From: Alphaproteobacteria bacterium
GTDB taxonomy: Bacteria > Pseudomonadota > Alphaproteobacteria > Bin95
Direction: 5' to 3'
DNA: 64,000 nt
Assembly (NCBI GenBank): GCA_022827685.1
Contig: JAJEIH010000047.1
Span: 16,536-80,535 of the forward strand
Below are positions 12,736 to 56,529 of the stretch, one piece after another; position 1 is the first letter of the stretch; every line of letters starts with the position of its first letter. The notes under the pieces are model-generated. The model saw only the letters and a program-made list of their open reading frames with translations, was not told the DNA's origin and ran no database searches. A program made the translations under genes and the position numbers.

Positions 12736-13097
12736 GCCGCCCGACGGAGCTGCGCTATTCCAGGGCCGGGCGCGTGCTGCATGTCGCCTTCGACGACGGG
12801 GCGGCGTTCGACCTGCCGGCGGAGTTGCTGCGCGTCGAGAGCCCTTCGGCCGAGGTGCAGGGCCACGGGCCGGGCCGCAAGACGCTGGTTCCGGGCCGCG
12901 CGCATGTTGGCATCACTGAAATCCTGCCCGAGGGCAACTATGCCGTCCGGCTGGTTTTCGACGACCTGCACGACACCGGCATCTACAGCTGGAGCTATCT
13001 GCGCGAACTCGGAGAACGCCGGGAGGAACTCTGGGACGCCTATCTGGAGGCGCTCGAGGCCGGCGGCCTCTCGCGGGAGCCGCAGCGCGCGCCGTGA
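12732..13097 (+). CDS. DUF971 family protein (gamma-butyrobetaine hydroxylase-like N-terminal domain)
   Basis: 121 aa with a DUF971-like pattern ([26 protein letters not shown]...[11 protein letters not shown]). The GTG start overlaps the Trm112 stop. Confidence 0.75.
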
Positions 13098-13197
13098 CAG
13101 CCCTGCCGCCGCCGGCTATTTTCCCGCCGTTCCCGGAGTGTGCGGGTCTTCGCTCCGTCCACGGGACCCCGCGGCCTTCAGGGAGGATGCAAGGCTT

Positions 13198-14186
13198 ATG
13201 CGCGTCGTGATAACCGGCGGCGCCGGCTTCATCGGCCGGCGGCTCGCGCTCCGGCTGCTCGAGGTGAATGCGCTGACGGACTCCGCCGGCCGGGAGCAGC
13301 CGGTCGAACGGGTCGTCCTGTTCGACAGGGCCGCGCCCGACCCGCGCCTCCTGCACGATCCGCGCGTCGAGGCCGTCATCGGCGATATCGGCGACCCGGA
13401 GCAGGTGCGCGCCGTCATCGCCCCGGACACGGGCGCCGTCTTCCACCTGGCGGCGGTGGTGAGCGCCGGGGCGGAGGAGGATTTCGACCTCGGCATGACG
13501 GTCAACCTCCAGGGCACGATGAACGTGCTGGCCGCCGCGCGCAGCCTGCCGGAGCCGGCGCGCCTGGTGTTCGCAAGCTCGGTCGCGGTCTATGGCGGCG
13601 CGATGCCGGAGACGATCCCGGACGGGCTGATCCTGAACCCGCAGACCTCCTACGGCACGCAGAAGGCCGTCGGCGAACTGCTGGTGCAGGACTATGCGCG
13701 CAAGGGCTATGTGGACGGGCGGGCGCTGCGCTTCCCGACGGTCGTGGTGCGCCCCGGCAAGCCCAACAAGGCGGCCTCGACCTGGGCGAGCTCCATCATC
13801 CGCGAGCCGCTGCAGGGCGAGGAGGCCGTCTGCCCGGTGGAGCCGGACCAGGCGATGTATGTGCTCTCGCCGCGCAAGGTGGTGGACGCCGTGCTGAAGG
13901 CGGCCGCCATGCCGCCGGAAGCCTGGGGGCCGGCACGGATGCTGGCGCTGCCGGGCCTGACCGTCACCGTGCGGGAGATGCTGGCGGCGCTTGCGGCCGT
14001 CGCGGGCGAGCGGGTGGCGGCGCGCGTGCATTTCGAGCCTGACCCCTTCATCCAGCAGATCGTGAACGGCTGGGCCACGCATTTCGACCCGGCGCGGGGC
14101 GAGGCGCTCGGCTTCGAGACCGACCGGGATTTCGAGGAGATCGTGCGCATCTTCATCGAGGACGAGCTTGGCGGGAGCTATGCCGC

Positions 14187-14190
<4 letters not shown>
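13198..14190 (+). CDS. NAD-dependent epimerase/dehydratase family protein (extended SDR; D-erythronate dehydrogenase-like)
   Basis: The ATG at 13198 gives MRVVITGGAGFIGRRL (Rossmann GxxGxxG), and the protein carries the catalytic YxxxK (YGTQK). Confidence 0.8.
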
Positions 14191-20640: not shown

Positions 20641-21168
<528 letters not shown>

Positions 21169-21183
21169 GCGGGAGATAAGGAC

Positions 21184-22527
21184 ATGCTTCGCACGATCAC
21201 CGGCCTCGCGGCCCTCTTCGTCCTGGCGGCATCGCCCGCCCATGCGGCGGTGGAAGGCGAGATCGCCTTCGTCTTCAACACCTTCTCCTTCCTGGTGCAC
21301 GGCTTCCTGGTCATGCTGATGGCGGCCGGCTTCGCCATGCTCGAATCAGGCCTCGTGCGCACCAAGAACACGGCGGCGATCTGCCTGAAGAACATCGCGC
21401 TCTACTCCATCGCCGGCATCATGTTCTACATCGTCGGCTACGCCGTGATGTACACGGATGTTGACGGCGGCTGGATCGGCGCGTTCGACTTCCTCTACAA
21501 TCCGTCCGAGGCCGAACTCGCGCTCCTCAACGCGGAGGAAGCGACGACCGGGCAGGTCGCGGCAGTGGTCGAGGGCGGCTACTCGGTCATGTCCGACTGG
21601 TTCTTCCAGATGGTGTTCGTGGCGACGGCCGCCTCCATCGTCTCGGGCACGCTCGCCGAGCGCATCCGCGTCCTGCCCTTCCTGATCTTCACGGTGCTGC
21701 TGTCGGCGCTGATCTACCCGATCCAGGCCTCCTGGGTCTGGGGCGGCGGCTGGCTCGCCGGGATGGGATTCAGCGATTTCGCCGGCTCGACGCTGGTGCA
21801 TTCCACCGGCGGCTGGGCCGCGCTCGCAGGCGCCATCGTGCTCGGCGCGCGCAAGGGCAAATACGGGCCCGAAGGGAGCATCAACCCCATGCCGGGCGCG
21901 AACCTGCCGCTGGCCACGCTCGGCACCTTCATCCTCTGGTTCGGCTGGTTCGGCTTCAATGGCGGCTCGCAGCTGGCGCTCGGCTCCGCCCTCGACGCGG
22001 TGGCGATCTCCATCGTCTATGTGAACACGAACCTCGCCGCCGCGGCGGGCGTGATCGCGGCCATGGCGACGAGCTATGTGCTGTACCGCAAGATCGACCT
22101 GACGCTGGCGCTGAACGGCGCCATCGCCGGCCTCGTCTCGATCACCGCCGGCCCCGACCTCCAGAACCATGTGCTGGCGCTCGTCATCGGCGGCATCGGC
22201 GGTGTGCTGGTGGTGTATGCGGTGCCGCTCCTCGACCGGCTGAAGGTCGATGATGTGGTGGGCGCGATTTCGGCCCATCTCGTCGCCGGAATCTGGGGCA
22301 CGCTCGCGGTCGGTATCTTCGGCGGCGGCGACTTCGTCACCCAGCTCATCGGCGTACTCGCCATCGGCGTCTTCGTCTTTGTCGTCTCGCTTGCAGCGTG
22401 GTTCGTCCTGAAGCTCGCACTGGGCATCCGGGCCTCGGAGGAGGCGGAGGACGACGGCCTCGACAAGAGCGAACTCGGCATGGAAGCCTATCCCGAGTTC
22501 GGCCGGGGCTCCTCGCCGCTCTTCTGA
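21184..22527 (+). CDS. amtB: Ammonium transporter AmtB
   Basis: 447 aa Amt/MEP family with a signal peptide and conserved LVHSTGGWAALAGAIVLGAR and WFGWFGFNGGS motifs. Confidence 0.9.
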   Translation: MLRTITGLAALFVLAASPAHAAVEGEIAFVFNTFSFLVHGFLVMLMAAGFAMLESGLVRTKNTAAICLKNIALYSIAGIMFYIVGYAVMYTDVDGGWIGAFDFLYNPSEAELALLNAEEATTGQVAAVVEGGYSVMSDWFFQMVFVATAASIVSGTLAERIRVLPFLIFTVLLSALIYPIQASWVWGGGWLAGMGFSDFAGSTLVHSTGGWAALAGAIVLGARKGKYGPEGSINPMPGANLPLATLGTFILWFGWFGFNGGSQLALGSALDAVAISIVYVNTNLAAAAGVIAAMATSYVLYRKIDLTLALNGAIAGLVSITAGPDLQNHVLALVIGGIGGVLVVYAVPLLDRLKVDDVVGAISAHLVAGIWGTLAVGIFGGGDFVTQLIGVLAIGVFVFVVSLAAWFVLKLALGIRASEEAEDDGLDKSELGMEAYPEFGRGSSPLF

Positions 22528-23427: not shown

Positions 23428-23818
23428 CGGCCCCGGCGGGCGGACAGGCCCGCGCGGGCTTGACGAAGACGGCCTCCATCCCCAATACTGAGGTTGGCAA
23501 TTATTGGAGTTGGCAGTTCAACGACGAGGGCAACCGCAATCTTCGGGGATATGTTGAATTGCGGCTCGGTGGCGGCTCCGGTTCCGCCTATCGCAACGAC
23601 AGCTTCCCCCGCATCCCGGCCGTTACCATGAAACGCAACTTTCAGGCCCGGCTTATGTCCTGCTCGGTCGTTTCACCCGGCCGCAGCCTCCTTTTCGCCG
23701 CAGCCGCGCCGGCGCCGGTTGTTCGCCTGTTCCCTGTCCGCCGTCCGCTTGCGAAGGCGTCGCGCTGCAACCGCGCCGGCGCTGCGCCGCGGAGCCAGCT
23801 GCAAGGAGGCCATGGTCG

Positions 23819-25846
23819 ATGACCGCTGCCGCCGAATGCACGAAAATCCAGCCCTTGAGTTTGCCCGACGAACTCATCCTGATGCTCCTCAACGACCAGA
23901 CCGGATACTTCCACCAGGTTCCCGGCTGGAGATTGCAATGCGCCGTCGCCGGCGCCGTGCTTGCGGAACTTTCGCTCCTGTCCCGCATCGACACGGACAT
24001 GGAGTCGCTGGTCCTGCTGGACCCGACGGAAACCGGCGACCCCGCACTGGACCCGCTACTGAAGGAAATTGCCGACGAACCCGACCAAAGGAACGCCCGT
24101 TACTGGGTTGAACGGTTTGCGGGACAGGCGGAGACGGTCATCGATTTGACGCTGGACCGCCTCGTGGACCAGGAGATTCTGGAACACCACGCCGGCGATT
24201 TCTGGACGCTGACTCCGGCTCACTGGCTTGCGCACCAGCGCAGCGATGCGGAAAAGAGCACCGCAAGCCAGTTCATCAGGACGCGCATCAGCGAGGCCAT
24301 TTTCACCGACATGATTCCCGATCCCAGGGACGTGATCGTCATTTGCCTCGTCAACACCTGCGACGTCTTTCGCTTCATGTTCGAACTCAACGAGCACGCG
24401 GAAGAGCGGATCGGGCTCATCTGCAGGATGGACCTGATCGGCCGCTCCATAGCCGAGGCGGTCGAACAGAACATTGCCAGCCCGACGGGCCGCCCCTCGG
24501 CTCTGTCCCGGCGCATACCGCGGGTTCCGCTGCATCGTCTGCTGTTGAATCCGCATGCGCGCACCGGCCATCTTCCGGCGCTCTTTGCAGACCTCGCGAA
24601 AGAGTATGGCCCAGTGTTCCAGATAAAGCTGCCGACGGCCAAACCCAAGACCTTCCTTGCCGGGGCGTCGGTCAACCGTTGGGTACACAAGAGCGGGCGG
24701 ATGCACCTGAGGGCGGGGGGGTATTTCGCCGACTTCGAGAACGTCTTCGGCGCATCGGGCGTCTTGCCTTCGCTGGACGGCGGCGACCACTTCCGGCTTC
24801 GCAAGGCCATGTCGCCGGCCTATTCGCGCGAACGGCTGGCCGGCCAGCTTGACCAGCTGTTCCGCCTTGTCCGCAAGTTCATGGCGACCTGGACGGTCGG
24901 GGAGACCTACCAGGCAAGGTCCCTGTGCCGAGCCATGGTCAACGAGCAGATTTCGTCTCTCCATGTCGGGGTCGATACGCAGGACCTGATCGACGATCTG
25001 GTCACTTACAAGGAGCGCGCGCTCAGCGTCCATATCATAAAGATCATGCCCGAATTCACGCTGAAGACCCCGGGCATGAGACGCCGGGCGAAAGCCATTG
25101 ACGAGATGCTGGAACGGGTCCGGCGCGTTCACACACCCGCCCAGCGCGCCGGTTGCCCGCGGAACCTAGCAGACGACGTGCTGGGCCTGAATGTGAGCGA
25201 CCCGCAATTGGTGCCGGAATCGAATCTGCGATTCGCCCTGACGGCGACAGGGCTGACCAGCGTGTATTTCGGCGATATGCTGAGCTTCGCGATTTACGCC
25301 ATGATTTCGCAGCCTGAGATCCACGAAAGAATCCGAAGCGAGGCGGACGCCCTGTTCGACAACGGCGATCCGGACGGCGAGGCCTTTACCCTGGCCGCCA
25401 CCGATGTCACTCACCGCTTCCTTCAGGAATGTCTGCGCATGTACCCGGTCATCGCGATGTCCGTGCGCGATGTGGTGAACTCCTGTGTGGTCGAGGGGCA
25501 CGAATTACCGGTCGGGTCCCGGGTCTATATCGCCCAGACGGCCTCGCACTATATGGACGACGTGTTTCCCGACCCGTTCTCGTTCGATATCGACCGCTAC
25601 CTGCCTCCGCAGAGCGCGCACCGCAGTTTCGGATTTGCGCCGTACGGACTGGGCACGCATACCTGTCTCGGCATCCGGCAGGCGCTTCTGCAAATGACGG
25701 TCAACATGATGATGATCGCGCATTACTTCACGATATCGGCGTCTCCATCCGACTATGAGCTTCGGTTCAACCCGATTCCGTCGATGAAGCCGACGAAGAA
25801 GCTGAAATTCCACATCGCCGGGCAGAGGCGCGAATTGCCTGCCTGA
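23819..25846 (+). CDS. Fusion protein: N-terminal GPP34/GOLPH3-like domain (about aa 1-225) plus C-terminal cytochrome P450 (about aa 232-675)
   Basis: The N-terminus (LSLPDELILMLLNDQTGYF...LQCAVAGAVLAELSLLSRID...IPDPRDVIVICLVNTCDV) fits the GPP34 family. The C-terminus has P450 hallmarks: EYGPVFQI, ExxR (ECLRMYPV), PDPFSFDIDRY and the heme loop YGLGTHTCLG. It is a single uninterrupted frame. GC is about 59%, against about 67% for the surroundings. Confidence 0.8.
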   Translation: MTAAAECTKIQPLSLPDELILMLLNDQTGYFHQVPGWRLQCAVAGAVLAELSLLSRIDTDMESLVLLDPTETGDPALDPLLKEIADEPDQRNARYWVERFAGQAETVIDLTLDRLVDQEILEHHAGDFWTLTPAHWLAHQRSDAEKSTASQFIRTRISEAIFTDMIPDPRDVIVICLVNTCDVFRFMFELNEHAEERIGLICRMDLIGRSIAEAVEQNIASPTGRPSALSRRIPRVPLHRLLLNPHARTGHLPALFADLAKEYGPVFQIKLPTAKPKTFLAGASVNRWVHKSGRMHLRAGGYFADFENVFGASGVLPSLDGGDHFRLRKAMSPAYSRERLAGQLDQLFRLVRKFMATWTVGETYQARSLCRAMVNEQISSLHVGVDTQDLIDDLVTYKERALSVHIIKIMPEFTLKTPGMRRRAKAIDEMLERVRRVHTPAQRAGCPRNLADDVLGLNVSDPQLVPESNLRFALTATGLTSVYFGDMLSFAIYAMISQPEIHERIRSEADALFDNGDPDGEAFTLAATDVTHRFLQECLRMYPVIAMSVRDVVNSCVVEGHELPVGSRVYIAQTASHYMDDVFPDPFSFDIDRYLPPQSAHRSFGFAPYGLGTHTCLGIRQALLQMTVNMMMIAHYFTISASPSDYELRFNPIPSMKPTKKLKFHIAGQRRELPA

Positions 25847-25868: not shown

Positions 25869-26663
25869 CTACCGCGCGCGTTTCAGCGCCGTGCGGGTGA
25901 AGTCGCCGAGGTCGAGATCGGTCCCGAACTCGTAGCCCGACCAGTCCAGCACGGTGCTTTTTCCCGTGAGGTGGTTGGTCATCGTCACCTTGCTGCTTCG
26001 CCAGAAGCGGTCGAGATATTTGTTGTAGCCTTCCACGACCATCGTCTTGAGATGCGCATCCCTGCGGTCGAAGAACTGAATCTGCATTGTGCGCAGCTCC
26101 TCCCGGTCCATCCAGACCAGCTGGCGCGAGTATCCCGAGTCCGGGCCGACGGGGATACGTTCGGAGACAGTGCATTCGAGGTCGCCGCAAGGCTCGCTGC
26201 GCAGAAGCCGGTGGGTGAATTTCTCGACCTCGGGGGTGCCCAGGTCCTCGTAGGAGAACTCGCTGCCCATGAAGGAGCCCGACTGGTTGGAGGAGCTGAT
26301 GCGCTTGACCCGTTTCAGAGCGGGGAGATAGAGCCACTGGTCATCGGCCTCCTCCTTGTGGGCGTGGACGAGAAACGCCGTTCCCCTGACATCGCGCGGC
26401 CGGTCGAACACGAACAGCGTCCGGTCGCCGTCATTCTCCACCTCGATGACCTTCAGGCGGACTTCGCGCTTGCTCTCCTGGCCCCGCTTGTTGCGCAGCG
26501 TCATCGTCATGCCCGCAACGAAATTGCCGAACCCCTTCTGCCGTTCGCGGGCTTCCGTCGCGAGCTTAAGCCCCTGCTCCTCGGGGCTGTCGGCGGCGCG
26601 GCCGGCGGACGGCGCAACCGACCAGGCGAACGCGGCAAGCATGGCTATGGACAAGGCAAGCAT
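25869..26663 (-). CDS. LolA-like outer-membrane lipoprotein-sorting family protein (periplasmic partner of an RND/MMPL exporter)
   Basis: A signal peptide (MLALSIAMLAAFAWSVAPSAGRA) is followed by a beta-rich domain typical of the LolA-like family. It lies directly downstream of, and co-oriented with, the RND gene. Confidence 0.75.
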   Translation of the reverse strand: MLALSIAMLAAFAWSVAPSAGRAADSPEEQGLKLATEARERQKGFGNFVAGMTMTLRNKRGQESKREVRLKVIEVENDGDRTLFVFDRPRDVRGTAFLVHAHKEEADDQWLYLPALKRVKRISSSNQSGSFMGSEFSYEDLGTPEVEKFTHRLLRSEPCGDLECTVSERIPVGPDSGYSRQLVWMDREELRTMQIQFFDRRDAHLKTMVVEGYNKYLDRFWRSSKVTMTNHLTGKSTVLDWSGYEFGTDLDLGDFTRTALKRAR

Positions 26664-26759
26664 CGGATGGGGGAGAGAGACGCGAATCACCGTTTCCTCC
26701 TGTCGGCACGGCTGCCGGAAACTCTTTGCAGAAGATAGCACAATGCCCGCCGCGCGCGC

Positions 26760-29084
26760 CTATCCAGCCTCACGCCGCAACCGTTCCCTGATCTGCTCGC
26801 TCGTTTCCTTCGTCCCGTCGAGCACCATCAGCAGGGGCGGGAGGAACAGGAGGTCCGCCAGGAGGGCGATGATGACCGTCATGCCCGCCAGCAGGCCGAG
26901 CGCCTGGTTGGTCACCATGCCCGATGCGCCGAACACCATGAAGCCGAGGCCGAACACAACCGTCGTCGCCAGCAGCGCCTTGCCCACGGAGCGGAAGGCG
27001 GACTGCACGGATTCCGACGGCAGCAGCCCGTTCTTCCTGGCGGCTACATATTTGGTCATGAAGTGGATCGTGTCGTCCACGATGATGCCGAACGCGATCG
27101 CGGTAACCACCGAGGCCGCAATGCCGACCTCGCCCACCAGATAGCCCCAGAGGCCCATCGCCATGGCGGCCGGGACGAAATTGGGAATCAGGCTGATGAC
27201 GCCGAGCCGCACGCTCCTGAAGACGAGCAGCAGCAGCAGGGAGACGATGGCCATGGCGATGAAGGTGCCGAGCAGCATGCCCTCTATGTTTCTCTGGGTG
27301 GACCGGGCGCCGACGAGCGAGACCCCGGTGGCGCCGGTTTCCATGCCGGGAGCGTTCTGCCCGAGCCATGCCTGCGCGCGTTCGTCGAGCGCGAGCTTCT
27401 CGTCGCTGGAAAGGCTGCGCAGCACGACCGTCATGCGCGTGGACGACCGCCCGACATCGATGAGATTGTTGAGGTCGCGGCCGACGGGCAGCGAAAATTC
27501 GTAGAGCAGCAGATATTGCGCGGCGAGGTCGGAGTCGTTGGGAAGGATGTGGAACGCCGGGTCGTCGCCATGCAGGTTCCTGTTGAGCCGCTTCATGATG
27601 TCGGTGATGGCGAAGACATGCGCGGTTTCCGGTTGTGCCCGGTACCATTCGACGAACGCGTCCACCCGCTTCAGATAGTCGATATCCGTTATGCCGCCCT
27701 CGCGCCCGGCGCTCAGCGAATACTCATAGGTTTCCACACCGGTGAAATTCTCGCTGATGAAGTCCGTGGACCGGCGGAACTCGTAGCTCTCGTCGAGAAG
27801 CTCCAGCCAGTTCTCCTTGAGTTCGATCCGCGAGATGCCGGCGACGAGCACGACGACCAGGACGCCGAACCCGCCGAGCAGAACCGTGCGGCGGGAAACG
27901 ACGAACCGGCCCAAGCGGTCGAAAAGGTCGGATTCGCCTGCGCCTGCAGCACGGACGCGCAGGGGCATCGCCGACAGGACCACGGGCAGGAGCGTCACCG
28001 CATAGACGAACGCGCACAAGCTGCCGAACGCCACCATGTTGCCCATGACCCGGAAGGGCGGCATATCCGCGAAATTCAGGCTGAGGAATCCGATTGCCGT
28101 CGTGAGCGATGTCAGGAAGACCGGCCACAGATTGACCCGCAGCGACTGGATCACCGCCTGCCGCCGGTCCAGACCCCGGCGCAGGCCCGCCGCCACGCCC
28201 TCGAACATATGCACCGAATGCGCAACGGTGACCGCCATCAGCACGAACAGCGCCGCGCCGCTCTCGCCGAAGAACTTCATGCCGGTCCAGCCGATGAAGC
28301 CCATCGAGGAAGCCAGGACGGCAGCCAGCATGATGACGATGGCGAGCGTGCCCCACAGCGAGCGCAGCAGAATGACGGCGACGAGCAGCATCGTGCCGAG
28401 CGCCGCCGGCGCGAGGATGCCCATATCCTCGTCGATCGCATCGCGCATGGCGCGGTTGAGGACGAGCTCGCCGGTGAGGTGGTAGTCGATGGCCGCATGC
28501 TCTTCCCGGGATTCGACGGCCGTGGCGCGGAGGAAATCCGTCACCTCCGCCTTGGCCGATTGCCGGTCCGTGTCGGGAAGCGCGACGCTGACCACCAGGC
28601 CGGCGACGCGACCGTTGCGGGAGACGAAACGCCCGGCGATTTCCTCGGTGCCGAGCGCGATTTCTTCGATTCGCCCCAGGTCATCGTCGCTCAGCGACGC
28701 GGCGTCGCCGATGAGCGGCTCGACGATCAGCTCGTCCTCAAGGCCTTCGCTGTGCTGGTAGTTGGTTATCGAATCGACGCGGGTGACGTAGGGCGTCTGC
28801 CAGAGCCGGTCGGTCAGATCCTCGATGGCGGCAAGCGCCTCGCGCGTGAAGATCGTGCCCTCCCGCGGCGCGGCCACGACGAGCGCGGCGTCGGACAGGG
28901 CATAGGTTTCCTCCAGCCGGTCGAGCGCGACGATATGCGGGTCGTCATGGCCGAAATGGTTCCGGACATCGACATCGACCTCAACGACACGCGCCGCGCC
29001 TGCCGCCAGGACCAGCACGACCAGCAGGCTGACCAGAACGGTCAGCCATCGCCGGGCCATGACGAGCGCTATGCAGGCGTCCAT
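26760..29084 (-). CDS. RND-superfamily exporter, MMPL/HpnN-like (COG1033)
   Basis: About 774 aa with two 6-TM bundles, each followed by a large periplasmic loop. It carries conserved RND motifs (GIIVDDTIHFM; AFGSLCAFVYAVTLLPVVL). The start could be 29084 (MDAC...) or 29060 (MARRW...). The remainder of the 1229-aa ORF is antisense and rejected. Confidence 0.85.
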   Translation of the reverse strand: MDACIALVMARRWLTVLVSLLVVLVLAAGAARVVEVDVDVRNHFGHDDPHIVALDRLEETYALSDAALVVAAPREGTIFTREALAAIEDLTDRLWQTPYVTRVDSITNYQHSEGLEDELIVEPLIGDAASLSDDDLGRIEEIALGTEEIAGRFVSRNGRVAGLVVSVALPDTDRQSAKAEVTDFLRATAVESREEHAAIDYHLTGELVLNRAMRDAIDEDMGILAPAALGTMLLVAVILLRSLWGTLAIVIMLAAVLASSMGFIGWTGMKFFGESGAALFVLMAVTVAHSVHMFEGVAAGLRRGLDRRQAVIQSLRVNLWPVFLTSLTTAIGFLSLNFADMPPFRVMGNMVAFGSLCAFVYAVTLLPVVLSAMPLRVRAAGAGESDLFDRLGRFVVSRRTVLLGGFGVLVVVLVAGISRIELKENWLELLDESYEFRRSTDFISENFTGVETYEYSLSAGREGGITDIDYLKRVDAFVEWYRAQPETAHVFAITDIMKRLNRNLHGDDPAFHILPNDSDLAAQYLLLYEFSLPVGRDLNNLIDVGRSSTRMTVVLRSLSSDEKLALDERAQAWLGQNAPGMETGATGVSLVGARSTQRNIEGMLLGTFIAMAIVSLLLLLVFRSVRLGVISLIPNFVPAAMAMGLWGYLVGEVGIAASVVTAIAFGIIVDDTIHFMTKYVAARKNGLLPSESVQSAFRSVGKALLATTVVFGLGFMVFGASGMVTNQALGLLAGMTVIIALLADLLFLPPLLMVLDGTKETSEQIRERLRREAG

Positions 29085-29318: not shown

Positions 29319-30839
29319 ATGCCGGGTGGAAATGTCCTTCTGGAGGCGCGCGGCATCGTCAAGAGCTTTGGTGGCCTGGCCGCGAACGACCGCATTGACC
29401 TCACCGTGCATGCGGGCGAGATTCATGCGCTGCTCGGCGAGAACGGTGCCGGCAAATCGACTCTCGTAAAAATCCTTTACGGTTCGCTCCAGCCGGATGC
29501 GGGCTCCGTAAGCTGGGAAGGCCGCCCGGCGGCGGTCGGCAATCCCGCCGAGGCGCGCGCGCTCGGCATCGGCATGGTCTTCCAGCATTTCTCGCTCTTC
29601 GAAGGCCTGACCGTCGCCGAGAACATCGCGCTCGCGCTGCCGCCCGATGAGGCCGGAAGCGGGCTCGCCGCCAATGTGCGGTCCGTCTCGGAATCCTACG
29701 GCCTGCCGCTCGATCCGGCGGCGCGGGTGGCCAGCCTGCCGGTGGGCGTGCGCCAGCGCATCGAGATCGTCCGCTGCCTGCTGCAGCGCCCGCGCCTGCT
29801 CATCATGGACGAGCCGACCTCGGTGCTGACGCCGCAGGAGGCCGAACGGCTGTTCGAGACCCTGCGCCGGCTCGCCGGCGAGGGTTGCGCGGTGCTCTAT
29901 ATCAGTCACCGGCTGGAGGAAGTCCGCCAGCTCTGCCACTCCGCAACCGTGCTGCGGCATGGACGGGTAGTCGGCCGGCCGGACCCGAAAACGGCGAGCA
30001 TGGCGGACCTCGCCCGGCTGATGGTGGGCGCCGATGTCGAAGGCGCCGGCAGCCGCGAAGGCGAACCCGCCGCGGCCGGTCCCGTCCGTCTCGCCGTCCG
30101 CGGCCTCTCGCTGGAGGCCGACACCCCCTTCGGCGTCTCGCTGGAGGACATTTCGCTCGAAGTCCGCGGCGGCGAGATCGTGGGCGTGGCGGGCGTCGCC
30201 GGAAACGGCCAGGACGAGTTGTTCGCCGCGCTCTCCGGGGAGACGCCCGCCTTCGACGACGACGCCGTCGAAATCGACGGCCGGGCCTGCGGGCGGATGG
30301 GACCGCGGTGGCGCAGGCGCCTGGGCGCGGCCTTCATCCCGGAGGAGCGGCTGGGCCATGCCGCCGTGCCGGCCATGCGGCTTTCGGAGAATGCCGTTCT
30401 CACGCGGCACGGCACCGACCCGGAGCTGGCGACGGGCGGCCTCCTGCACCTCTCACAGGCGCGCGGCCTCGCGCGGCGCATCGTGGAGCGCTTCGATGTG
30501 CGCGCGCCGGAGGGCGACCCGGAGGCCGGGGCGCTTTCGGGAGGCAACCTGCAGAAATTCGTCGTGGGCCGCGAACTCGACCGCAGGCCGGGCGTGCTGG
30601 CGGTGAGCCAGCCGACCTGGGGCGTCGATATCGGCGCGGCGACCGAGATCCGCCGCGAACTGGCCGCGCTGGCGCGGGACGGGGCCGCCGTTCTCGCGAT
30701 CAGCCAGGACTTGGACGAAATTCTCGAGATCTCCGACCGCATTGCCGTGATCTCGCGGGGCCGGCTCTCCCCGGCGGTCCCAACCGGAGATACGTCCAGG
30801 GAGGCCATCGGCCTGCTCATGGGCGGCGCGGGGGACTGA
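29319..30839 (+). CDS. ABC transporter ATP-binding protein with duplicated ATPase domains (BMP/nucleoside-type uptake system)
   Basis: Two Walker A sites (GENGAGKST; GVAGNGQDELF-type) and two signature motifs (LPVGVRQRIEIV; LSGGNLQKFVVG). Confidence 0.85.
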   Translation: MPGGNVLLEARGIVKSFGGLAANDRIDLTVHAGEIHALLGENGAGKSTLVKILYGSLQPDAGSVSWEGRPAAVGNPAEARALGIGMVFQHFSLFEGLTVAENIALALPPDEAGSGLAANVRSVSESYGLPLDPAARVASLPVGVRQRIEIVRCLLQRPRLLIMDEPTSVLTPQEAERLFETLRRLAGEGCAVLYISHRLEEVRQLCHSATVLRHGRVVGRPDPKTASMADLARLMVGADVEGAGSREGEPAAAGPVRLAVRGLSLEADTPFGVSLEDISLEVRGGEIVGVAGVAGNGQDELFAALSGETPAFDDDAVEIDGRACGRMGPRWRRRLGAAFIPEERLGHAAVPAMRLSENAVLTRHGTDPELATGGLLHLSQARGLARRIVERFDVRAPEGDPEAGALSGGNLQKFVVGRELDRRPGVLAVSQPTWGVDIGAATEIRRELAALARDGAAVLAISQDLDEILEISDRIAVISRGRLSPAVPTGDTSREAIGLLMGGAGD

Positions 30840-30845
30840 CGGCCG

Positions 30846-31933
30846 TGCGGATCGAACTCCGGCATCGGACGGAAGACTCCCGCCTCATGGTCTGGCTGTC
30901 GCCGCTGCTGGCCCTCGGACTCACGCTCGTCTTCGGCACTTTCCTGTTCGCGGCGCTGGGACACGACCCGTTTCGGGCGCTCTACGTCTATTTCGTCAAG
31001 CCGCTCACCGAGGCCTGGTCGCTCGAGGAGATCGTCGTCAAGGCGACGCCGCTGGCCCTGATCGGGGTCGGGCTCGCGCTCGTCTTCCGCGCCAATGTCT
31101 GGAACATCGGCGCCGAGGGCCAATACACGGTGGGCGCCATCTGCGGGTCGGTCCTGCCGGTCATGCTGCCCGATCTGCAGGGGCCGCTGCTGCTGCCGGC
31201 CGTGCTGGTATGCGGCGCGTTCGGAGGCATGGCGTGGGCGGCGATACCCGCCTTCTTCCGCGTCCGGTTCGGCGCCAACGAAATCCTGACCTCGCTGATG
31301 CTGGTCTATGTGGCGCAACTCCTTCTGGACTGGCTGGTGCGCGGCCCGTGGCGCAACCCGGAGGGATATAATTTTCCCGAATCGCGGCTCTTCGAAGCCG
31401 ATGCGGTGATACCGGCGCTGGCCGGACGGATGCACTTCGGCACGATATTCGCGCTGGTTGCGGTTGCGGCGCTCGCCATCGTCCTCGGGCGGACCCTCAA
31501 GGGGTTCGAGTTCCGGGTCATCGGGGCGGCCCCCCGGGCCGGCGCCTTCGCCGGCTTCTCCGAACGCCGCTCCATCGTGGCCGTGCTGCTGATTTCCGGC
31601 GGACTTGCGGGCGTTGCGGGCATCGGCGAGGTGTCGGGCACCATCGGGCAGCTCCACCCGTCCATCTCGCCCGGCTACGGCTTCACGGCCATCATCGCCG
31701 CCTTTCTCGGGCGGCTGAACCCGTTGGGCGTGCTGTTCGCCTCCCTGCTGCTGGCGCTCACCTATATCGGCGGCGAGGCGGCCCAAGTCTCGCTCGGCGT
31801 CTCCGACAAGATCGCCCGCGTGTTCCAGGGGGCGATCCTGATCTTCGTGCTGGCCTGCGACGTGTTCATCCGCTACCGCCTCCACTTCCAGCCGATGCGC
31901 CGCCCGGCGGCGCGCGCGGAGGACGCGCCGTGA
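30846..31933 (+). CDS. ABC transporter permease (BMP-family system, first permease)
   Basis: Multi-TM protein VRIELRH...MVWLSPLLALGLTLVFG.... The start could be the GTG at 30846 or the ATG at 30887. Confidence 0.8.
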
Positions 31934-32850
31934 CTGGCTTCGAGGCGGTCGTCCTTACCATCGTCACGGCCGCGACGCCGCTGCTGATCGCGGCGCTCGG
32001 CGAGCTTGTGACGGAGCGCTCGGGCGTCCTCAATCTCGGCGTCGAGGGCATGATGATCGTCGGCGCCGTGACCGGCTTCGCGGGCGCTCAGCTGACCGGC
32101 TCCCCCTATCTGGGCGTCATCGCCGCCATGGCGGGCGGGATGGCGCTTTCCAGCCTGTTCGGCTTCCTGGTGCTGCGGCTTGCCGCCAACCAGGTCGCGT
32201 CCGGGCTCGCGCTCACGCTGCTCGGGCTCGGCCTCTCGGGCATGATCGGCGAGGCCTTCATCGGGCAGCCGGGCCTCAAGCTCGAACGCATCGACATCCC
32301 GTTCCTGACGGACCTGCCGGTGGTCGGGACCATCCTGTTCGGGCAGGACCCGCTGGTCTATGCGTCGGTGACGCTGGCGGTATGCGTCTCCCGCTTCCTG
32401 TTCCGCACCCGGGCCGGACTGGCGCTGCGCGCCGTCGGCAACAACCACGCCTCCGCCCACATGCTGGGCGTCCATGTCATCCGGACCCGCTTCCTGGCGG
32501 TCCTGTTCGGCGGGGCCTGTTCCGGGCTGGCCGGCGGCTACCTGTCGCTCGCCTACACGCCGCAATGGGTCGAGGGCATGACCGCGGGGCGGGGATGGAT
32601 CGCGCTGGCGCTCGTGGTGTTCGCAAGCTGGATGCCGCTGCGCGCTGCCGTCGGCGCCTATCTCTTCGGCGGCGCGCTCATCCTCCAATTTCATGCACAG
32701 GCGGAAGGAATCCCGCTGCCGTCGCAGTTCCTTTCGGCCCTGCCGTATATTGCGACGGTCGCCGCGCTGGTGATACTCTCGCGCGATCGATGGACGGCGA
32801 GGAACGACTCGCCGTCCTGCCTCGGACAGGTGTTCGTCCCGGACCGGTAG
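31930..32850 (+). CDS. ABC transporter permease (second permease)
   Basis: 306 aa multi-TM protein. Its start overlaps the preceding permease's stop. Confidence 0.85.
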   Translation: MTGFEAVVLTIVTAATPLLIAALGELVTERSGVLNLGVEGMMIVGAVTGFAGAQLTGSPYLGVIAAMAGGMALSSLFGFLVLRLAANQVASGLALTLLGLGLSGMIGEAFIGQPGLKLERIDIPFLTDLPVVGTILFGQDPLVYASVTLAVCVSRFLFRTRAGLALRAVGNNHASAHMLGVHVIRTRFLAVLFGGACSGLAGGYLSLAYTPQWVEGMTAGRGWIALALVVFASWMPLRAAVGAYLFGGALILQFHAQAEGIPLPSQFLSALPYIATVAALVILSRDRWTARNDSPSCLGQVFVPDR

Positions 32851-32909
32851 GAGGGCATCTCCGCCCCGCGGCGCTTTCGACCGGCCGGAAGCCGATTGGA
32901 GAACAGGAA

Positions 32910-33974
32910 ATGATGAGAGCTACCGTCCTCGCCGTTTTCGCCGCGATGCTGGCGCTTCCGGCCGCGCAGGCCGCCGATCCCGTCAAGGCGGCGTTCGTCT
33001 ATGTCGGCCCGATCGGCGACCACGGCTGGACCTACCAGCACGACCAGGGCCGCCTCGCCGTCGAAAAGGCTTTCGGCGACAAGGTCGAGACCGTCTATAT
33101 CGAGAACGTGGCGGAAGGCCCGGACGCCGAGCGCGCCATCGAGCGGTTCGCGCGCGAGGGGGCGGACATCGTCTTCACCACCTCCTTCGGCTTCATGAAC
33201 CCGACGATAAAGGTCGCCAAACGCTTCCCGGACGTGAAGTTCGAGCACGCCACGGGCTACAAGCGGGCCGACAATGTCGCGACCTACTCCGCGCGCTTCT
33301 ATGAAGGCCGCTATGTCATCGGCCAGATCGCGGCCAAGATGTCCAAGTCGGGCGTTGCGGGCTATGTCGCGTCGTTCCCGATTCCCGAAGTCGTGCGCGG
33401 CATAAACTCCTTCCTGCTCGGCGCGCAGTCCGTCAACCCGGACTTCAAGCTGAAGATCGTCTGGGTGAACACCTGGTTCGACCCCGGCAAGGAGGCCGAC
33501 GCCGCCAAGGCGCTGATCGACCAGGGCGCCGACATCATGACCCAGCACACCGACAGCCCGGCGCCGATCCAGATCGCCGGAGAGCGCGGCGTCCACGGGT
33601 TCGGCCAGGCCTCTGACATGGACGCCTTCGCGCCCGCCGCCCACTACACGGCGATCATCGACGACTGGAGCGCTTACTATATTGCCCGCGTGAAGGCGGT
33701 GCTCGACGGCACGTGGGAATCGGGCGACGTGTGGGGCGGCTTCGACGCCGACATGGTGGTCATGGCCCCCTACACCGACCTGCCGGAGGATGTCGCGGCC
33801 GACGCCGCCGCCATGGTCGAGAAGATCCGCTCCGGCGAATTCCATCCCTTCACCGGCCCGATCCACGACCAGGAAGGCAAGCTCCGCATCGCCGAGGGCG
33901 AGCGGGCCGACGAGGGCATGCTGCTCGGCATGAACTGGTATGTGAAGGGCGTTGACGACAAGCTGCCCCAGTAG
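32910..33974 (+). CDS. BMP-family (basic membrane protein / PnrA-like) ABC substrate-binding protein, probable purine-nucleoside binder
   Basis: A signal peptide (MMRATVLAVFAAMLALPAAQA) is followed by a BMP fold (VGPIGDHGWTYQHDQG, NTWFDPGKE). Confidence 0.85.
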   Translation: MMRATVLAVFAAMLALPAAQAADPVKAAFVYVGPIGDHGWTYQHDQGRLAVEKAFGDKVETVYIENVAEGPDAERAIERFAREGADIVFTTSFGFMNPTIKVAKRFPDVKFEHATGYKRADNVATYSARFYEGRYVIGQIAAKMSKSGVAGYVASFPIPEVVRGINSFLLGAQSVNPDFKLKIVWVNTWFDPGKEADAAKALIDQGADIMTQHTDSPAPIQIAGERGVHGFGQASDMDAFAPAAHYTAIIDDWSAYYIARVKAVLDGTWESGDVWGGFDADMVVMAPYTDLPEDVAADAAAMVEKIRSGEFHPFTGPIHDQEGKLRIAEGERADEGMLLGMNWYVKGVDDKLPQ

Positions 33975-35319
33975 CGGCCCGCCCGCCCGGAACGGCGCCG
34001 ATGCCGTCGTTCTGGGCCGCCTGATCGACTTTTCTGGCGACCCGGCCGCGCTCGGCCGGGTCGCCGTCCGCGACAGTCCGGGCGGCGCGCTCGCGCTCAG
34101 AGGGGGGCGCATTGCCTGGGCGGGCGCCGCCGCCGACCTGCCGGCGGATTTCGCGGACACGCCGCGCCGGGACTACGGGCAGTGCCTCGTGCTGCCGGGC
34201 TTCGTCGACCCGCATATCCACTTCCCGCAATACCGAATCGCCGCCGCCGGAGGCCGCGGCCTGCTGGACTGGCTCGACCGCTTCGCCTTCCCCGAAGAGG
34301 TGCGCTATGCGGACGGGGACCATGCCGCCGCCGCGGCCGAGATGTTCCTTGACCTCCTTCTGGCCCACGGCACGACGGCGGCGCTTGTCTTCTCCACTGT
34401 CCACGAGGAGGCTGCCGACCGGCTCTTCGCGGCAGCGGAACGCCGCGGCATGGCGCTCGCCGCCGGCAAGACCCTCATGGACCGGGGTGCGCCCGCAGCG
34501 CTCCGCGACGACGCCGAGGGCGGACTGCGCGCGAGCGAGCGGCTCCACGCCCGCTGGCACGGGCGGGGGCGATTGCGCTACGCCGTCTCGCCCCGCTTCG
34601 CCATCACATCGGGGGCGGCGCAGCTCGCGGCGGCGGGGGAGTTCCTGGAGAGCCATCCCGACGCGCTGATGCAGACGCATCTCTCCGAGACGCCGGAGGA
34701 AATCGCCGAGGTCGCCCGCCTGTTCCCGGACGCCGCCGACTACACCGATGTTTACGACCGCTTCGGCCTGCTCGGGCCGACGAGCCTGTTCGCGCACGGC
34801 GTCCACCTTTCGGCGCGCGAGCGCGAGCGGCTGGGCGAGGCCGGCTCGGCTGTGGTCCACTGCCCCACCTCGAACGCCTTTCTGGGCTCGGGCCTGTTCG
34901 ACATCGGGCCCTATTCGCCGGAGGCCGGGGCCGCCACGCCGCGCCTTGCGGTCGCCACCGACATAGGCGGCGGCACAAGCTATTCGCTCCCCGCGACCCT
35001 GGGCGCGGCCTACCGGACGGCGCAACTCCGGGGCAGGCGGCTTGCGCCGGAACGCGCCTTCTACCTTGCGACGCTGGGCAACGCCGAAGCGCTCGGCATG
35101 GAAACGGAAATCGGGCGGCTGGAACCCGGATTCCATGCCGACCTCGTGGTGCTCGACCCCCGGGCGACGCCGCTGCTGGCCGCGCGCGATGCGCTCAGTG
35201 AAACGCTCGCCGACACGCTGCTCGCCCTGATGATCCTGGGCGACGACCGAATCGTCCGGGCAAGCTGGGTTGCGGGGCGGCAATTGCACCCGAAGCCGGA
35301 CGACAGCCCGGCGGGCTGA
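33952..35319 (+). CDS. guaD: Guanine deaminase (amidohydrolase family)
   Basis: It aligns along its full length with E. coli GuaD (VLPGFVDPHIHFPQ, HGTTAALVF, HLSETPEEIAEV, HCPTSNAFLGSG). The start is uncertain: the TTG at 33952 overlaps the SBP gene's 3' end. Confidence 0.8.
   Translation: MTTSCPSSGPPARNGADAVVLGRLIDFSGDPAALGRVAVRDSPGGALALRGGRIAWAGAAADLPADFADTPRRDYGQCLVLPGFVDPHIHFPQYRIAAAGGRGLLDWLDRFAFPEEVRYADGDHAAAAAEMFLDLLLAHGTTAALVFSTVHEEAADRLFAAAERRGMALAAGKTLMDRGAPAALRDDAEGGLRASERLHARWHGRGRLRYAVSPRFAITSGAAQLAAAGEFLESHPDALMQTHLSETPEEIAEVARLFPDAADYTDVYDRFGLLGPTSLFAHGVHLSARERERLGEAGSAVVHCPTSNAFLGSGLFDIGPYSPEAGAATPRLAVATDIGGGTSYSLPATLGAAYRTAQLRGRRLAPERAFYLATLGNAEALGMETEIGRLEPGFHADLVVLDPRATPLLAARDALSETLADTLLALMILGDDRIVRASWVAGRQLHPKPDDSPAG

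Positions 35320-47615: not shown

Positions 47616-50865
<3,250 letters not shown>

Positions 50866-50873
<8 letters not shown>

Positions 50874-54594: not shown

Positions 54595-56529
<1,935 letters not shown>

Follow-up and report, generated by a model that had tools for sequence, protein, structure and literature searches.

What does a bacterium gain from joining a domain of the GOLPH3 family, to which eukaryotes entrust Golgi enzymes, to a cytochrome P450? The question is raised by a gene of 675 codons in a 64,000-nucleotide stretch of an Alphaproteobacteria genome (GenBank assembly GCA_022827685.1, contig JAJEIH010000047.1, positions 16,536 to 80,535; hereafter the window), which encodes a GPP34/GOLPH3-like domain followed by a P450. 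An initial annotation, made from the letters of the window, regarded this fusion as undescribed and guessed that its N-terminal half may be a lipid-recognition or membrane-targeting module. Having compared the protein with its relatives, with GOLPH3 and with known P450s, and its gene with the neighbourhoods of its orthologues, we consider it moderately probable that the protein works in the cytoplasm, in association with the membrane, as a P450 tailoring a lipid (probably a sterol), and that it is coupled to an exporter of the resistance-nodulation-division (RND) superfamily, with GPP34 serving as tether or adaptor.

One reading frame, two domains and a published family

No internal stop interrupts the 675-codon frame, either in the list of open reading frames (ORFs) or in the translation, and Pfam recovers both domains far above their cut-offs, which bears out the proposal of a GPP34 domain and a complete P450 in one frame. 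GPP34 (PF05719; E 5.4e-32, 111.9 bits against a cut-off of 29.1) is matched over positions 1-199 of its 201-position profile, and this hidden Markov model (HMM) match over nearly the whole profile places the N-terminal half in that family. The p450 match (PF00067; E 1.4e-32, 113.5 bits against 22.8) is accompanied by the FxxGxxxCxG-type heme-ligand loop YGLGTHTC616LG, the ExxR motif and the PERF-like FDIDRY, all three invariant across the family, and on these grounds the C-terminal half is a P450. The motifs that had been quoted for it (ExxR, PDPFSFDIDRY and YGLGTHTCLG) were all found in the translation. At E ≤ 1 Pfam gave only these two domains for the fusion protein, and NCBIfam only weak P450 matches; no signal peptide, Sec/Tat-like N-terminus or transmembrane segment is predicted in it.

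The linker between the domains is less conserved (53% identity) than the domains themselves (68-69%). The ratio of nonsynonymous to synonymous substitution rates (dN/dS) over 98 pairs is 0.18 for GPP34, 0.24 for the linker and 0.16 for the P450, and both halves, as well as the linker, are under purifying selection. With a shallow multiple sequence alignment (MSA) of 30 sequences, all of them at least 64% identical, AlphaFold reached a predicted local distance difference test (pLDDT) of 55, after which two distant fusion subfamilies were added. The resulting deep and diverse MSA led to an AlphaFold2 model of two folded domains, with a pLDDT of 88.5 and a predicted TM-score (pTM) of 0.83. Uncertain residues in this model are limited to 1-10, 137-145 and 226-228, and the low pLDDT of the last group lies within the linker, in agreement with the expectation of two folded domains joined by one.

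When one genome per GTDB species was scanned, 548 species representatives from at least 12 phyla were found to encode a relative of the fusion, at 64-99% identity. The best 80 of these 548, on which the neighbourhood counts below are based, are all full-length and all come from metagenome-assembled genomes (MAGs) of typical sponge-symbiont lineages. A word-indexed search listed no fewer than 120 proteins close to 675 aa in length that carry both Pfam domains (66-99% identity), so that the same architecture is readily found in other genomes, and a protein 100% identical to that of the window is present in GCA_022821465.1 and in ENA KELL22-1_SAMN22237339, two independent assemblies. The chance that the fusion is an artefact of a frameshift or a chimeric assembly, or else a decaying pseudogene junction, is therefore negligible: architecture and length are equal in the 548 representatives, many of the loci stand on complete long-read chromosomes, the identical protein comes from independent assemblies, selection acts on domains and linker alike, the two-domain model is confident, and dozens of clusters of full-length fusions exist at 24-39% identity.

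The architecture is not new, contrary to what had been supposed. It was published as GPP34_L, in which GPP34 is joined to a cytochrome P450, an arrangement seen in 656 of 663 long GPP34 proteins (Microbiome 2025;13:4, PMC11706023), and Pfam-annotated copies are abundant in public databases. The window protein has the same two-domain architecture and length, and is a member of GPP34_L. According to that study, GPP34_L is exclusive to sponge symbionts of many phyla, does not occur in their free-living relatives and is expressed in Aplysina aerophoba, as judged from metatranscriptomes. The protein is read there as a secreted binder of phosphatidylinositol 4-phosphate (PI4P), whereas we favour an intracellular role in tailoring lipids or sterols. 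The study leaves the pocket residues, the charge, the P450 motifs and the flanks of GPP34_L unexamined and does not mention sterols, RND or MMPL; the sterol and export context of the fusion, its loss of the PI4P pocket, its acidity and its change in the P450 I-helix appear to be unreported. One locus (L038) bears an isolate name, Plut_88904, that suggests a MAG from the coral Porites lutea, which is unconfirmed; if so, the family would be tied to marine-invertebrate symbionts and not strictly to sponges.

Among the top 150 clusters obtained at 50% identity, about 45 are full-length fusions that are 24-39% identical to the query, and a search with representatives revealed at least two further large fusion subfamilies (266 and 1393 matches). 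Judging from these alignments, the age and diversity of the architecture exceed those of a single clade. Subfamilies can share a genome, as P0015 and P0425 do on one 4.8-Mb contig. One relative of 872 aa (P0130) carries two tandem GPP34 domains ahead of the P450, and two loci hold two fusion copies on the same strand, about 3 kb apart in L028 (4987-7011 and 10001-12028) and adjacent in L045 (7773-9797 and 9473-12025). Mean identity of the fusion is 74.5% when both members come from one phylum or class and 71.0% when they do not, and the nearest neighbour comes from another phylum in 21 of 78 cases, with pairs such as Gammaproteobacteria and Poribacteria at 92% or Binatia and Thermodesulfobacteriota at 93%. 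Such cross-phylum neighbours and identities speak for repeated horizontal transfer combined with strong constraint. Since the GC content of the gene follows that of its flanks and host (r = 0.79), these transfers are not very recent. A gene of about 59% GC in a chromosome of about 67% had originally been noted. The gene is indeed poorer in GC than its surroundings, although the actual values are 61.4% and, for the window, 68.0%; its GC at third codon positions (GC3) is 79%, similar to its neighbours, so that the difference is mostly an effect of amino-acid composition. A recent acquisition, as could be inferred from low GC, was rejected in view of this equal GC3 and the tracking of flank GC. 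Older horizontal transfer is supported, and what stands of the weakly supported hint at a foreign gene is the mobile module described below and the phylogenetic incongruence, while the composition has been ameliorated. Between L065 and L066, assigned to 'Rhodospirillales' and 'Chloroflexota' MAGs from related samples, the fusion genes and their neighbours are 100% identical, which is probably a matter of binning cross-contamination and not of transfer.

The GPP34 half beside GOLPH3, the P450 half beside other P450s

A profile of the fusion family matches human GOLPH3 (3kn1/9qpq) at E 3.6e-5, which allows the residues involved in lipid binding to be compared. The PI4P pocket of GOLPH3 consists of W81, R90, R171 and R174 (PMC3596250; bioRxiv 10.1101/2025.06.26.661719). 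Aligned to these are W37, A/V44, E105 and I108 of the window protein, meaning that three of the four are lost (R90 to A/V, R171 to E and R174 to I). In the window subfamily W37 and I108 are invariant and E105 nearly so; the full pocket is found in no fusion subfamily, and subfamily B retains the R174 equivalent only. On this alignment, the fusion GPP34 would lack what PI4P recognition through the pocket requires. The domain is moreover strongly acidic, with a net charge of -20 ± 3.5 and a pI of 4.4 in the window clade; the charge ranges from -13 to -17 in the remaining subfamilies, as opposed to +2 for residues 55-260 of GOLPH3; the linker, at +5, and the P450 half, at +5 to +9, are basic. Loss of the pocket, acidity, and the lack of a signal peptide or transmembrane segment together argue that the fusion GPP34 is not a reader of PI4P.

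Other features of GOLPH3 do seem to be kept. The AlphaFold2 model has strands at 121-124 and 128-131 that form a hairpin (aa 121-131), in which F128-W129-T130-L131 align with F194-L195-L196-F197 of GOLPH3, and across all three fusion subfamilies 3.0-3.7 of the four tip positions are hydrophobic. A hydrophobic beta-hairpin of the membrane-inserting type is thus predicted to persist. GOLPH3 has a second activity, in which an electronegative face above the membrane binds the short basic tails of membrane enzymes (bioRxiv 10.1101/2025.06.26.661719), and the net charge of -13 to -20 in all fusion subfamilies is consistent with a face of this kind. Compared with GOLPH3 and Vps74 (3kn1, 9qpq, 2zii), the fusion GPP34 shares the W81 equivalent and the hydrophobic hairpin and, to judge by its net charge, may share the electronegative surface character, but it lacks R90, R171 and R174 as well as the N-terminal COPI-binding tail, is joined to an enzyme, and works in bacteria that have neither Golgi nor COPI. 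By analogy, it would occupy the N-terminal spot where eukaryotic E-class, or microsomal, P450s bear their membrane anchor. As such, the early guess at a membrane-targeting or lipid-recognition module is compatible with the neighbourhood, the hairpin and the missing signal peptide, and fits better than the published PI4P-effector model; the PI4P binding that it implied is not supported.

The P450 half departs from the textbook in its I-helix. Subfamily B has the canonical A-G-x-(D/E)-T, whereas the window protein reads A-S-V-Y483-F-G485-D486-M-L-S489, with Y483, G485, D486 and S489 invariant in its subfamily. In the deep MSA, Y483-L/F484 of subfamily A are aligned to the Asp-Thr of subfamily B. 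It should be noted, however, that the register is ambiguous, as four alignments gave four registers; an HMM alignment to CYP51 puts L488 at the position of the Thr, and one BLAST alignment puts S489 there. The canonical acid-alcohol motif appears not to be recognisable in subfamily A, with Asp-Thr seemingly replaced by Tyr-Leu.

By convention, P450s of the same family share more than 40% identity. The fusion P450 and the genuine CYP51 of one of our loci (L022) share only 25% identity over 208 aa, and the fusion P450 belongs therefore to another CYP family. In agreement with this, the fusion family matches CYP51 structures at E 1.5e-22, compared to E 3e-104 for the CYP51 of L022, and it lacks the CYP51 I-helix signature AG(Q/H)HTS. 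The top Foldseek match is the heme domain of BM3 (TM-score 0.80), and solved structures of nearest fold include the oleic-acid complex of CYP184A1, CYP102-family enzymes, CYP4B1 and the retinoic-acid complex of CYP120A1. P450 BM3 (CYP102A1), CYP116B and the CYP51-ferredoxin of Methylococcus likewise consist of a P450 heme domain fused to a second domain. Their partner, however, is a C-terminal redox domain (FMN/FAD or Fe-S), while here it is N-terminal and without a cofactor-binding Pfam domain, so that the fusion is not one with a redox partner.

Neighbours of the fusion gene in related genomes and in the window

For the 80 best loci we compared the 10 kb on either side of the fusion gene, with representatives verified against Pfam, NCBIfam and the PDB. 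The most widespread neighbour is a transporter of the RND superfamily (67 of the 80 loci), which comes in three architectures according to envelope type. Proteobacteria, including the window, have an MMPL/HAE3 protein of about 775 aa together with a LolA-like protein; Chloroflexota an MMPL with matches to Patched/sterol-sensing domains; and Latescibacterota, Gemmatimonadota, Opitutales and Binatia an AcrB with a membrane-fusion protein (MFP) and an outer-membrane factor (OMF). In 10 loci AcrB ends at most 300 nt upstream of the fusion gene on the same strand, which gives the P450 the appearance of closing the pump operon. A paralogous subfamily at 39% identity also lies among OMF, AcrB, MFP and amine-oxidase genes.

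At least one gene of a sterol family is present in 66 of the 80 loci. Half of the loci (40 of 80) hold a sterol C-24 methyltransferase (SMT) with the diagnostic Sterol_MT_C domain, at a median gap of 45 nt to the fusion for 34 close orthologues and within 300 nt in 22 loci. A Rieske oxygenase with a KshA C-terminal domain, found in 54, has SdmA, the 4-methylsterol monooxygenase of sterol C-4 demethylation, as its sole NCBIfam match and KshA as its best PDB match. A gene of the FAD amine-oxidase family occurs in 37 loci, directly downstream on the same strand in 10; its nearest structures are LkcE and 2b9w, which is annotated as 'putative aminooxidase' and which we take to be a fatty-acid isomerase. 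Fewer loci hold genes for sterol synthesis proper: ERG4/ERG24 (8 of 80), a genuine CYP51 (6 of 80; E 3e-104 to the Methylococcus CYP51 structure), and a squalene-epoxidase/oxidosqualene-cyclase (SE-OSC) fusion (6 of 80; TIGR03463 at E 5e-218). Public gene calls with precomputed Pfam matches independently show the same sterol and pump neighbourhoods. In a sponge Nitrospira MAG the order is GPP34-P450, SMT, Rieske, outer-membrane protein, SMT, SE-OSC, CYP51, ERG24, and in a Defluviicoccus MAG it is SMT, GPP34-P450, FAD oxidase, LolA-like, MMPL, Rieske and a short-chain dehydrogenase/reductase (SDR).

Several further observations concern these loci. In L087 (8001-12080) Sulfotransfer_1 and Acyl_transf_3 genes come after a subfamily-B fusion with the canonical I-helix, all on one strand, an order that suggests hydroxylation and then sulfation or acylation; the pair presumably resembles cyp128-stf3 of Mycobacterium tuberculosis and recalls the sulfated sterols of sponges. 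A squalene-epoxidase-like flavoprotein fused to an oxidosqualene cyclase, 1156-1273 aa long, lies in L045 (14134-17952) and L083 (13995-17465), and such a bifunctional protein has already been reported as MsbE in a Melophlus symbiont (PMC7074536). Four conserved clusters without a Pfam match (13, 27, 28 and 62, of 99, 117, 291 and 110 aa) were set aside, at least two of them being wrong-frame shadows, of the Rieske oxygenase (cluster 13) and of SMT (cluster 27). 'Clusters of steroid genes' in sponge symbionts and bacterial SMTs are known (PMC9531527, PMC7074536, PMC10070321); in none of these three papers do GPP34, this P450 or the pumps appear, and among open-access papers and preprints we found nothing that links GPP34 to sterols or this P450 to sponge sterols.

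Triterpenoid exporters offer a precedent for the pumps. In the sterol transporters BstA/B/C of Methylococcus (eLife 2024, PMC10942540) and in HpnN, an inner-membrane RND pump with a periplasmic carrier stands beside sterol or hopanoid enzymes, an arrangement thought to supply the outer membrane with the lipid, and the pumps here follow a similar pattern. The neighbouring RND genes score 173-194 bits as HAE3 (NCBIfam cut-off 352), 113-118 as HpnN (752) and 21-33 as BstA (1400). Unlike in BstA/HpnN, the periplasmic partner is LolA-like and not a substrate-binding protein of the BstB type, and other phyla use a classical AcrB-MFP-OMF efflux system as the pump. By these comparisons, the MMPL and LolA-like proteins of the window appear to share the superfamily and the logic of Bst/HpnN without being of the same family.

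The window shows a reduced form of this neighbourhood: the P450, the LolA-like gene and the MMPL gene (Table 1). The LolA-like gene is convergent with the fusion gene at a gap of 22 nt (PF17131 at E 4.8e-58 with Pfam; PDB 3bk5 at E 7.7e-77) and has an orthologue in 14 related loci. The MMPL protein (Pfam MMPL, E 9.3e-37; the Sterol-sensing match is below threshold) is 77% identical to its orthologue in L040, which scores as HAE3/HpnN-like in NCBIfam. Both genes match their counterparts in loci with sterol genes at 75-77% identity. What L002 and L004 have in common with the window is limited to about 23.2-29.2 kb, their flanks being different, so the P450, LolA-like and MMPL genes travel as a module of about 6 kb.

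Table 1. Features of the fusion gene and of its surroundings, in window coordinates
Feature	Coordinates	Strand	Remarks
GPP34-cytochrome P450 fusion gene	23819-25846	+	675 aa plus stop; GPP34_L family, subfamily A
Shine-Dalgarno sequence AAGGAGG	23803-23809	+	consensus, 9 nt before the fusion-gene ATG; read from the sequence
GPP34 domain, aa 15-216	23861-24466	+	Pfam PF05719; net charge about -21
Basic inter-domain linker, aa 217-245	24467-24553	+	net +5; identity, charge, pLDDT
Cytochrome P450 domain, aa 246-662	24554-25804	+	E-class; Pfam PF00067
P450 I-helix, aa 467-497	25217-25309	+	within the P450 domain
ExxR, E537-C-L-R540	25427-25438	+	P450 K-helix motif
Heme-ligand Cys616	25664-25666	+	Cys-ligand loop YGLGTHTC616LG
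LolA-like periplasmic lipid carrier	25869-26690	-	273 aa (public call; ORF reaches 26741); LolA_like PF17131
MMPL/HAE3-family RND transporter	26760-29084	-	774 aa (public call); Pfam MMPL; upstream of the LolA-like gene
NAD-dependent epimerase/3-beta-hydroxysteroid dehydrogenase-family protein	12781-14190	+	469 aa; N-terminal extension of about 140 aa
P-II (glnB-like), then amtB	20659-22527	+	upstream of a tetratricopeptide-repeat (TPR) gene and the fusion gene
Intergenic region	23428-23818		390 nt, before the fusion gene
ABC operon, then amidohydrolase	29319-35319	+	ABC_tran, two BPD_transp_2 permeases, Bmp-family binding protein
Xanthine-dehydrogenase-like molybdopterin protein	44831-47104	-	
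carB	47616-50873	-	
rpoD	54595-56529	+	

The presence of carB, rpoD and amtB indicates that the window is chromosomal; its source is probably a sponge symbiont among the Alphaproteobacteria. The P-II and amtB genes follow the ordinary gene order of nitrogen regulation and are not kept beside the fusion in other lineages. The epimerase/3-beta-hydroxysteroid dehydrogenase-family protein lies about 10 kb upstream of the fusion gene, and the Pfam families that it matches also match a 356-aa gene that accompanies sterol clusters elsewhere. In the region before the fusion gene, a 120-aa ORF (23460-23822; TTG start, its stop overlapping the fusion ATG) was treated as non-coding, being absent from public annotation, without a family match and conserved in the closest relatives only. 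A scan for promoters and terminators gave nothing above chance, including a sigma-70-like site at 23460-23489, and an Rfam scan of the whole window gave no match. ORFs of 1229 and 1258 aa at 26.7-30.8 kb were discarded as over-extended readings of the 774-aa MMPL gene and a 506-aa ABC gene.

Competing explanations and what the family may mean

In the explanation we favour, the heme-thiolate P450 would tailor a membrane lipid, most probably a sterol that is either host-derived or self-made, and the product would be handed to an RND-type lipid exporter, in the window presumably the MMPL pump with its LolA-like carrier. GPP34 most likely would keep the enzyme on the inner side of the cytoplasmic membrane by means of its hydrophobic hairpin, and its acidic face may dock basic tails or loops belonging to a membrane partner (the pump, for instance, or a membrane sterol enzyme), an adaptor role much like that of GOLPH3 towards Golgi enzymes. 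The gene would then be part of a small, horizontally exchanged island in symbionts, of many phyla, of marine invertebrates and chiefly sponges, with fuller islands adding the SMT, the KshA/SdmA-like Rieske oxygenase, the FAD amine-oxidase and sometimes a whole cluster of CYP51, ERG24 and oxidosqualene cyclase.

A number of points weigh against this explanation. Neither SMT, Rieske, FAD oxidase nor sterol-synthesis genes were found in the 64-kb window or near the fusion in its closest clade (L001-L005), so for the window genome the sterol link is one of orthology only. De novo sterol clusters occur in about 20% of MAGs, compared to a high prevalence of GPP34_L, and since the fusion is the commoner of the two, its substrate may not be a self-made sterol. 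Fold similarity cannot separate sterol from fatty-acid P450s, given that Z differences are small and BM3 comes first. The RND genes fall well under the equivalog cut-offs of HpnN and BstA, and pairs of LolA-like and MMPL proteins are generic exporters of hydrophobic compounds that also exist outside sponges (3bk5). An anionic bacterial membrane would be expected to repel a domain with a net charge of -20, which makes simple docking questionable. Furthermore, no redox partner (ferredoxin, reductase or cytochrome P450 reductase) was found in five annotated neighbourhoods, and the loci are not independent observations, as islands that are transferred as blocks inflate the counts of co-occurrence.

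How do other explanations fare against the same evidence? According to the published model, GPP34_L is secreted, binds host PI4P on the phagosome and blocks its maturation, so that the symbiont can survive inside sponge cells, leaving the P450 an accessory role. The near confinement of the family to symbionts of sponges (and possibly corals) and its absence from free-living relatives agree with this model (PMC11706023), as do the expression in A. aerophoba, the real homology to GOLPH3 and the invariance of W37, the equivalent of W81, in the window subfamily. Nevertheless, we regard it as improbable. Besides the loss of three pocket residues, the incomplete pocket of every subfamily and a charge far from the +2 of the human core, the gene stands among, and apparently is partly co-transcribed with, those of cytoplasmic or membrane lipid enzymes and efflux pumps, with no secretion-system genes seen in the annotated neighbourhoods. 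Effectors of the Legionella SidM/SidC type combine secretion with a PI4P domain, while neither a Sec/Tat-like N-terminus nor a transmembrane segment is predicted in the fusion, and it would be odd to secrete an enzyme whose heme chemistry depends on O2, NAD(P)H and a redox partner.

Detoxification is a more serious contender, although still an unlikely one. Here the P450 would oxidise membrane-active metabolites of the host or of neighbours, such as terpenoids, brominated alkaloids or sterol-like toxins, the RND pump would expel the products, and the sterol enzymes would adjoin merely because lipid genes share one mobile island. It is the RND association that is the most universal, and it includes tripartite AcrB-MFP-OMF systems in apparent operons; the window clade has pump and P450 only; the fold is like that of broad-specificity lipid P450s; and the sulfotransferase and acyltransferase that are paired with subfamily B follow a phase I/phase II pattern. 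On the other hand, a mean identity of 71% between phyla and the low dN/dS suggest one defined substrate rather than a broad range of xenobiotics, and the tightest adjacency is to SMT, a biosynthetic enzyme. That the P450 acts on a different lipid, be it a fatty acid or acyl chain, a hopanoid, or a carotenoid or retinoid, which an HpnN-like pump would carry to the outer membrane, strikes us as a slim prospect, no stronger than that of the secreted effector. The oleic- and retinoic-acid-binding folds, CYP102 and CYP4B1 near the fusion P450, the best scores of the RND genes as HAE3/HpnN-like and the proximity of the FAD oxidase to LkcE and 2b9w all point in that direction. Genes for the synthesis of hopanoids, carotenoids or fatty acids do not recur in the neighbourhoods, however, whereas the sterol markers Sterol_MT_C, ERG4/ERG24, CYP51 and oxidosqualene cyclase do. 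Both detoxification and a non-sterol lipid weigh especially for the window clade, which is without sterol genes.

The function of the family matters, since the sole proposal in print is the hijacking of host PI4P, which the evidence from residues, charge and gene context contradicts. Beyond the tailoring of a lipid next to a pump, it is possible, although we hold this tentatively and at less than an even chance, that the fusion is the core enzyme of a horizontally shared pathway of sterol tailoring and export, acting with SMT, Rieske oxygenase and FAD oxidase on sterols of the host or of its own making through non-canonical P450 chemistry and with hand-over to the RND pump. If so, a new CYP family with an unusual I-helix would be a candidate for a missing tailoring step in bacterial sterol metabolism. 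Bacteria would then contribute to the unusual sterols of sponges that are used as the oldest animal biomarkers, and the finding would bear on the role of symbionts in side-chain-alkylated sponge sterols (24-isopropyl, 26-methyl), the biomarkers of the earliest animals; the SMT family that neighbours the fusion has been shown to perform such side-chain alkylations (PMC10070321). Bacterial GPP34 would, moreover, show that the GOLPH3 family ancestrally served as an adaptor of lipid enzymes close to the membrane and not as a phosphoinositide reader, and would offer a tractable bacterial system for the role of the GOLPH3/GPP34 fold before eukaryotes put it to use at the Golgi.

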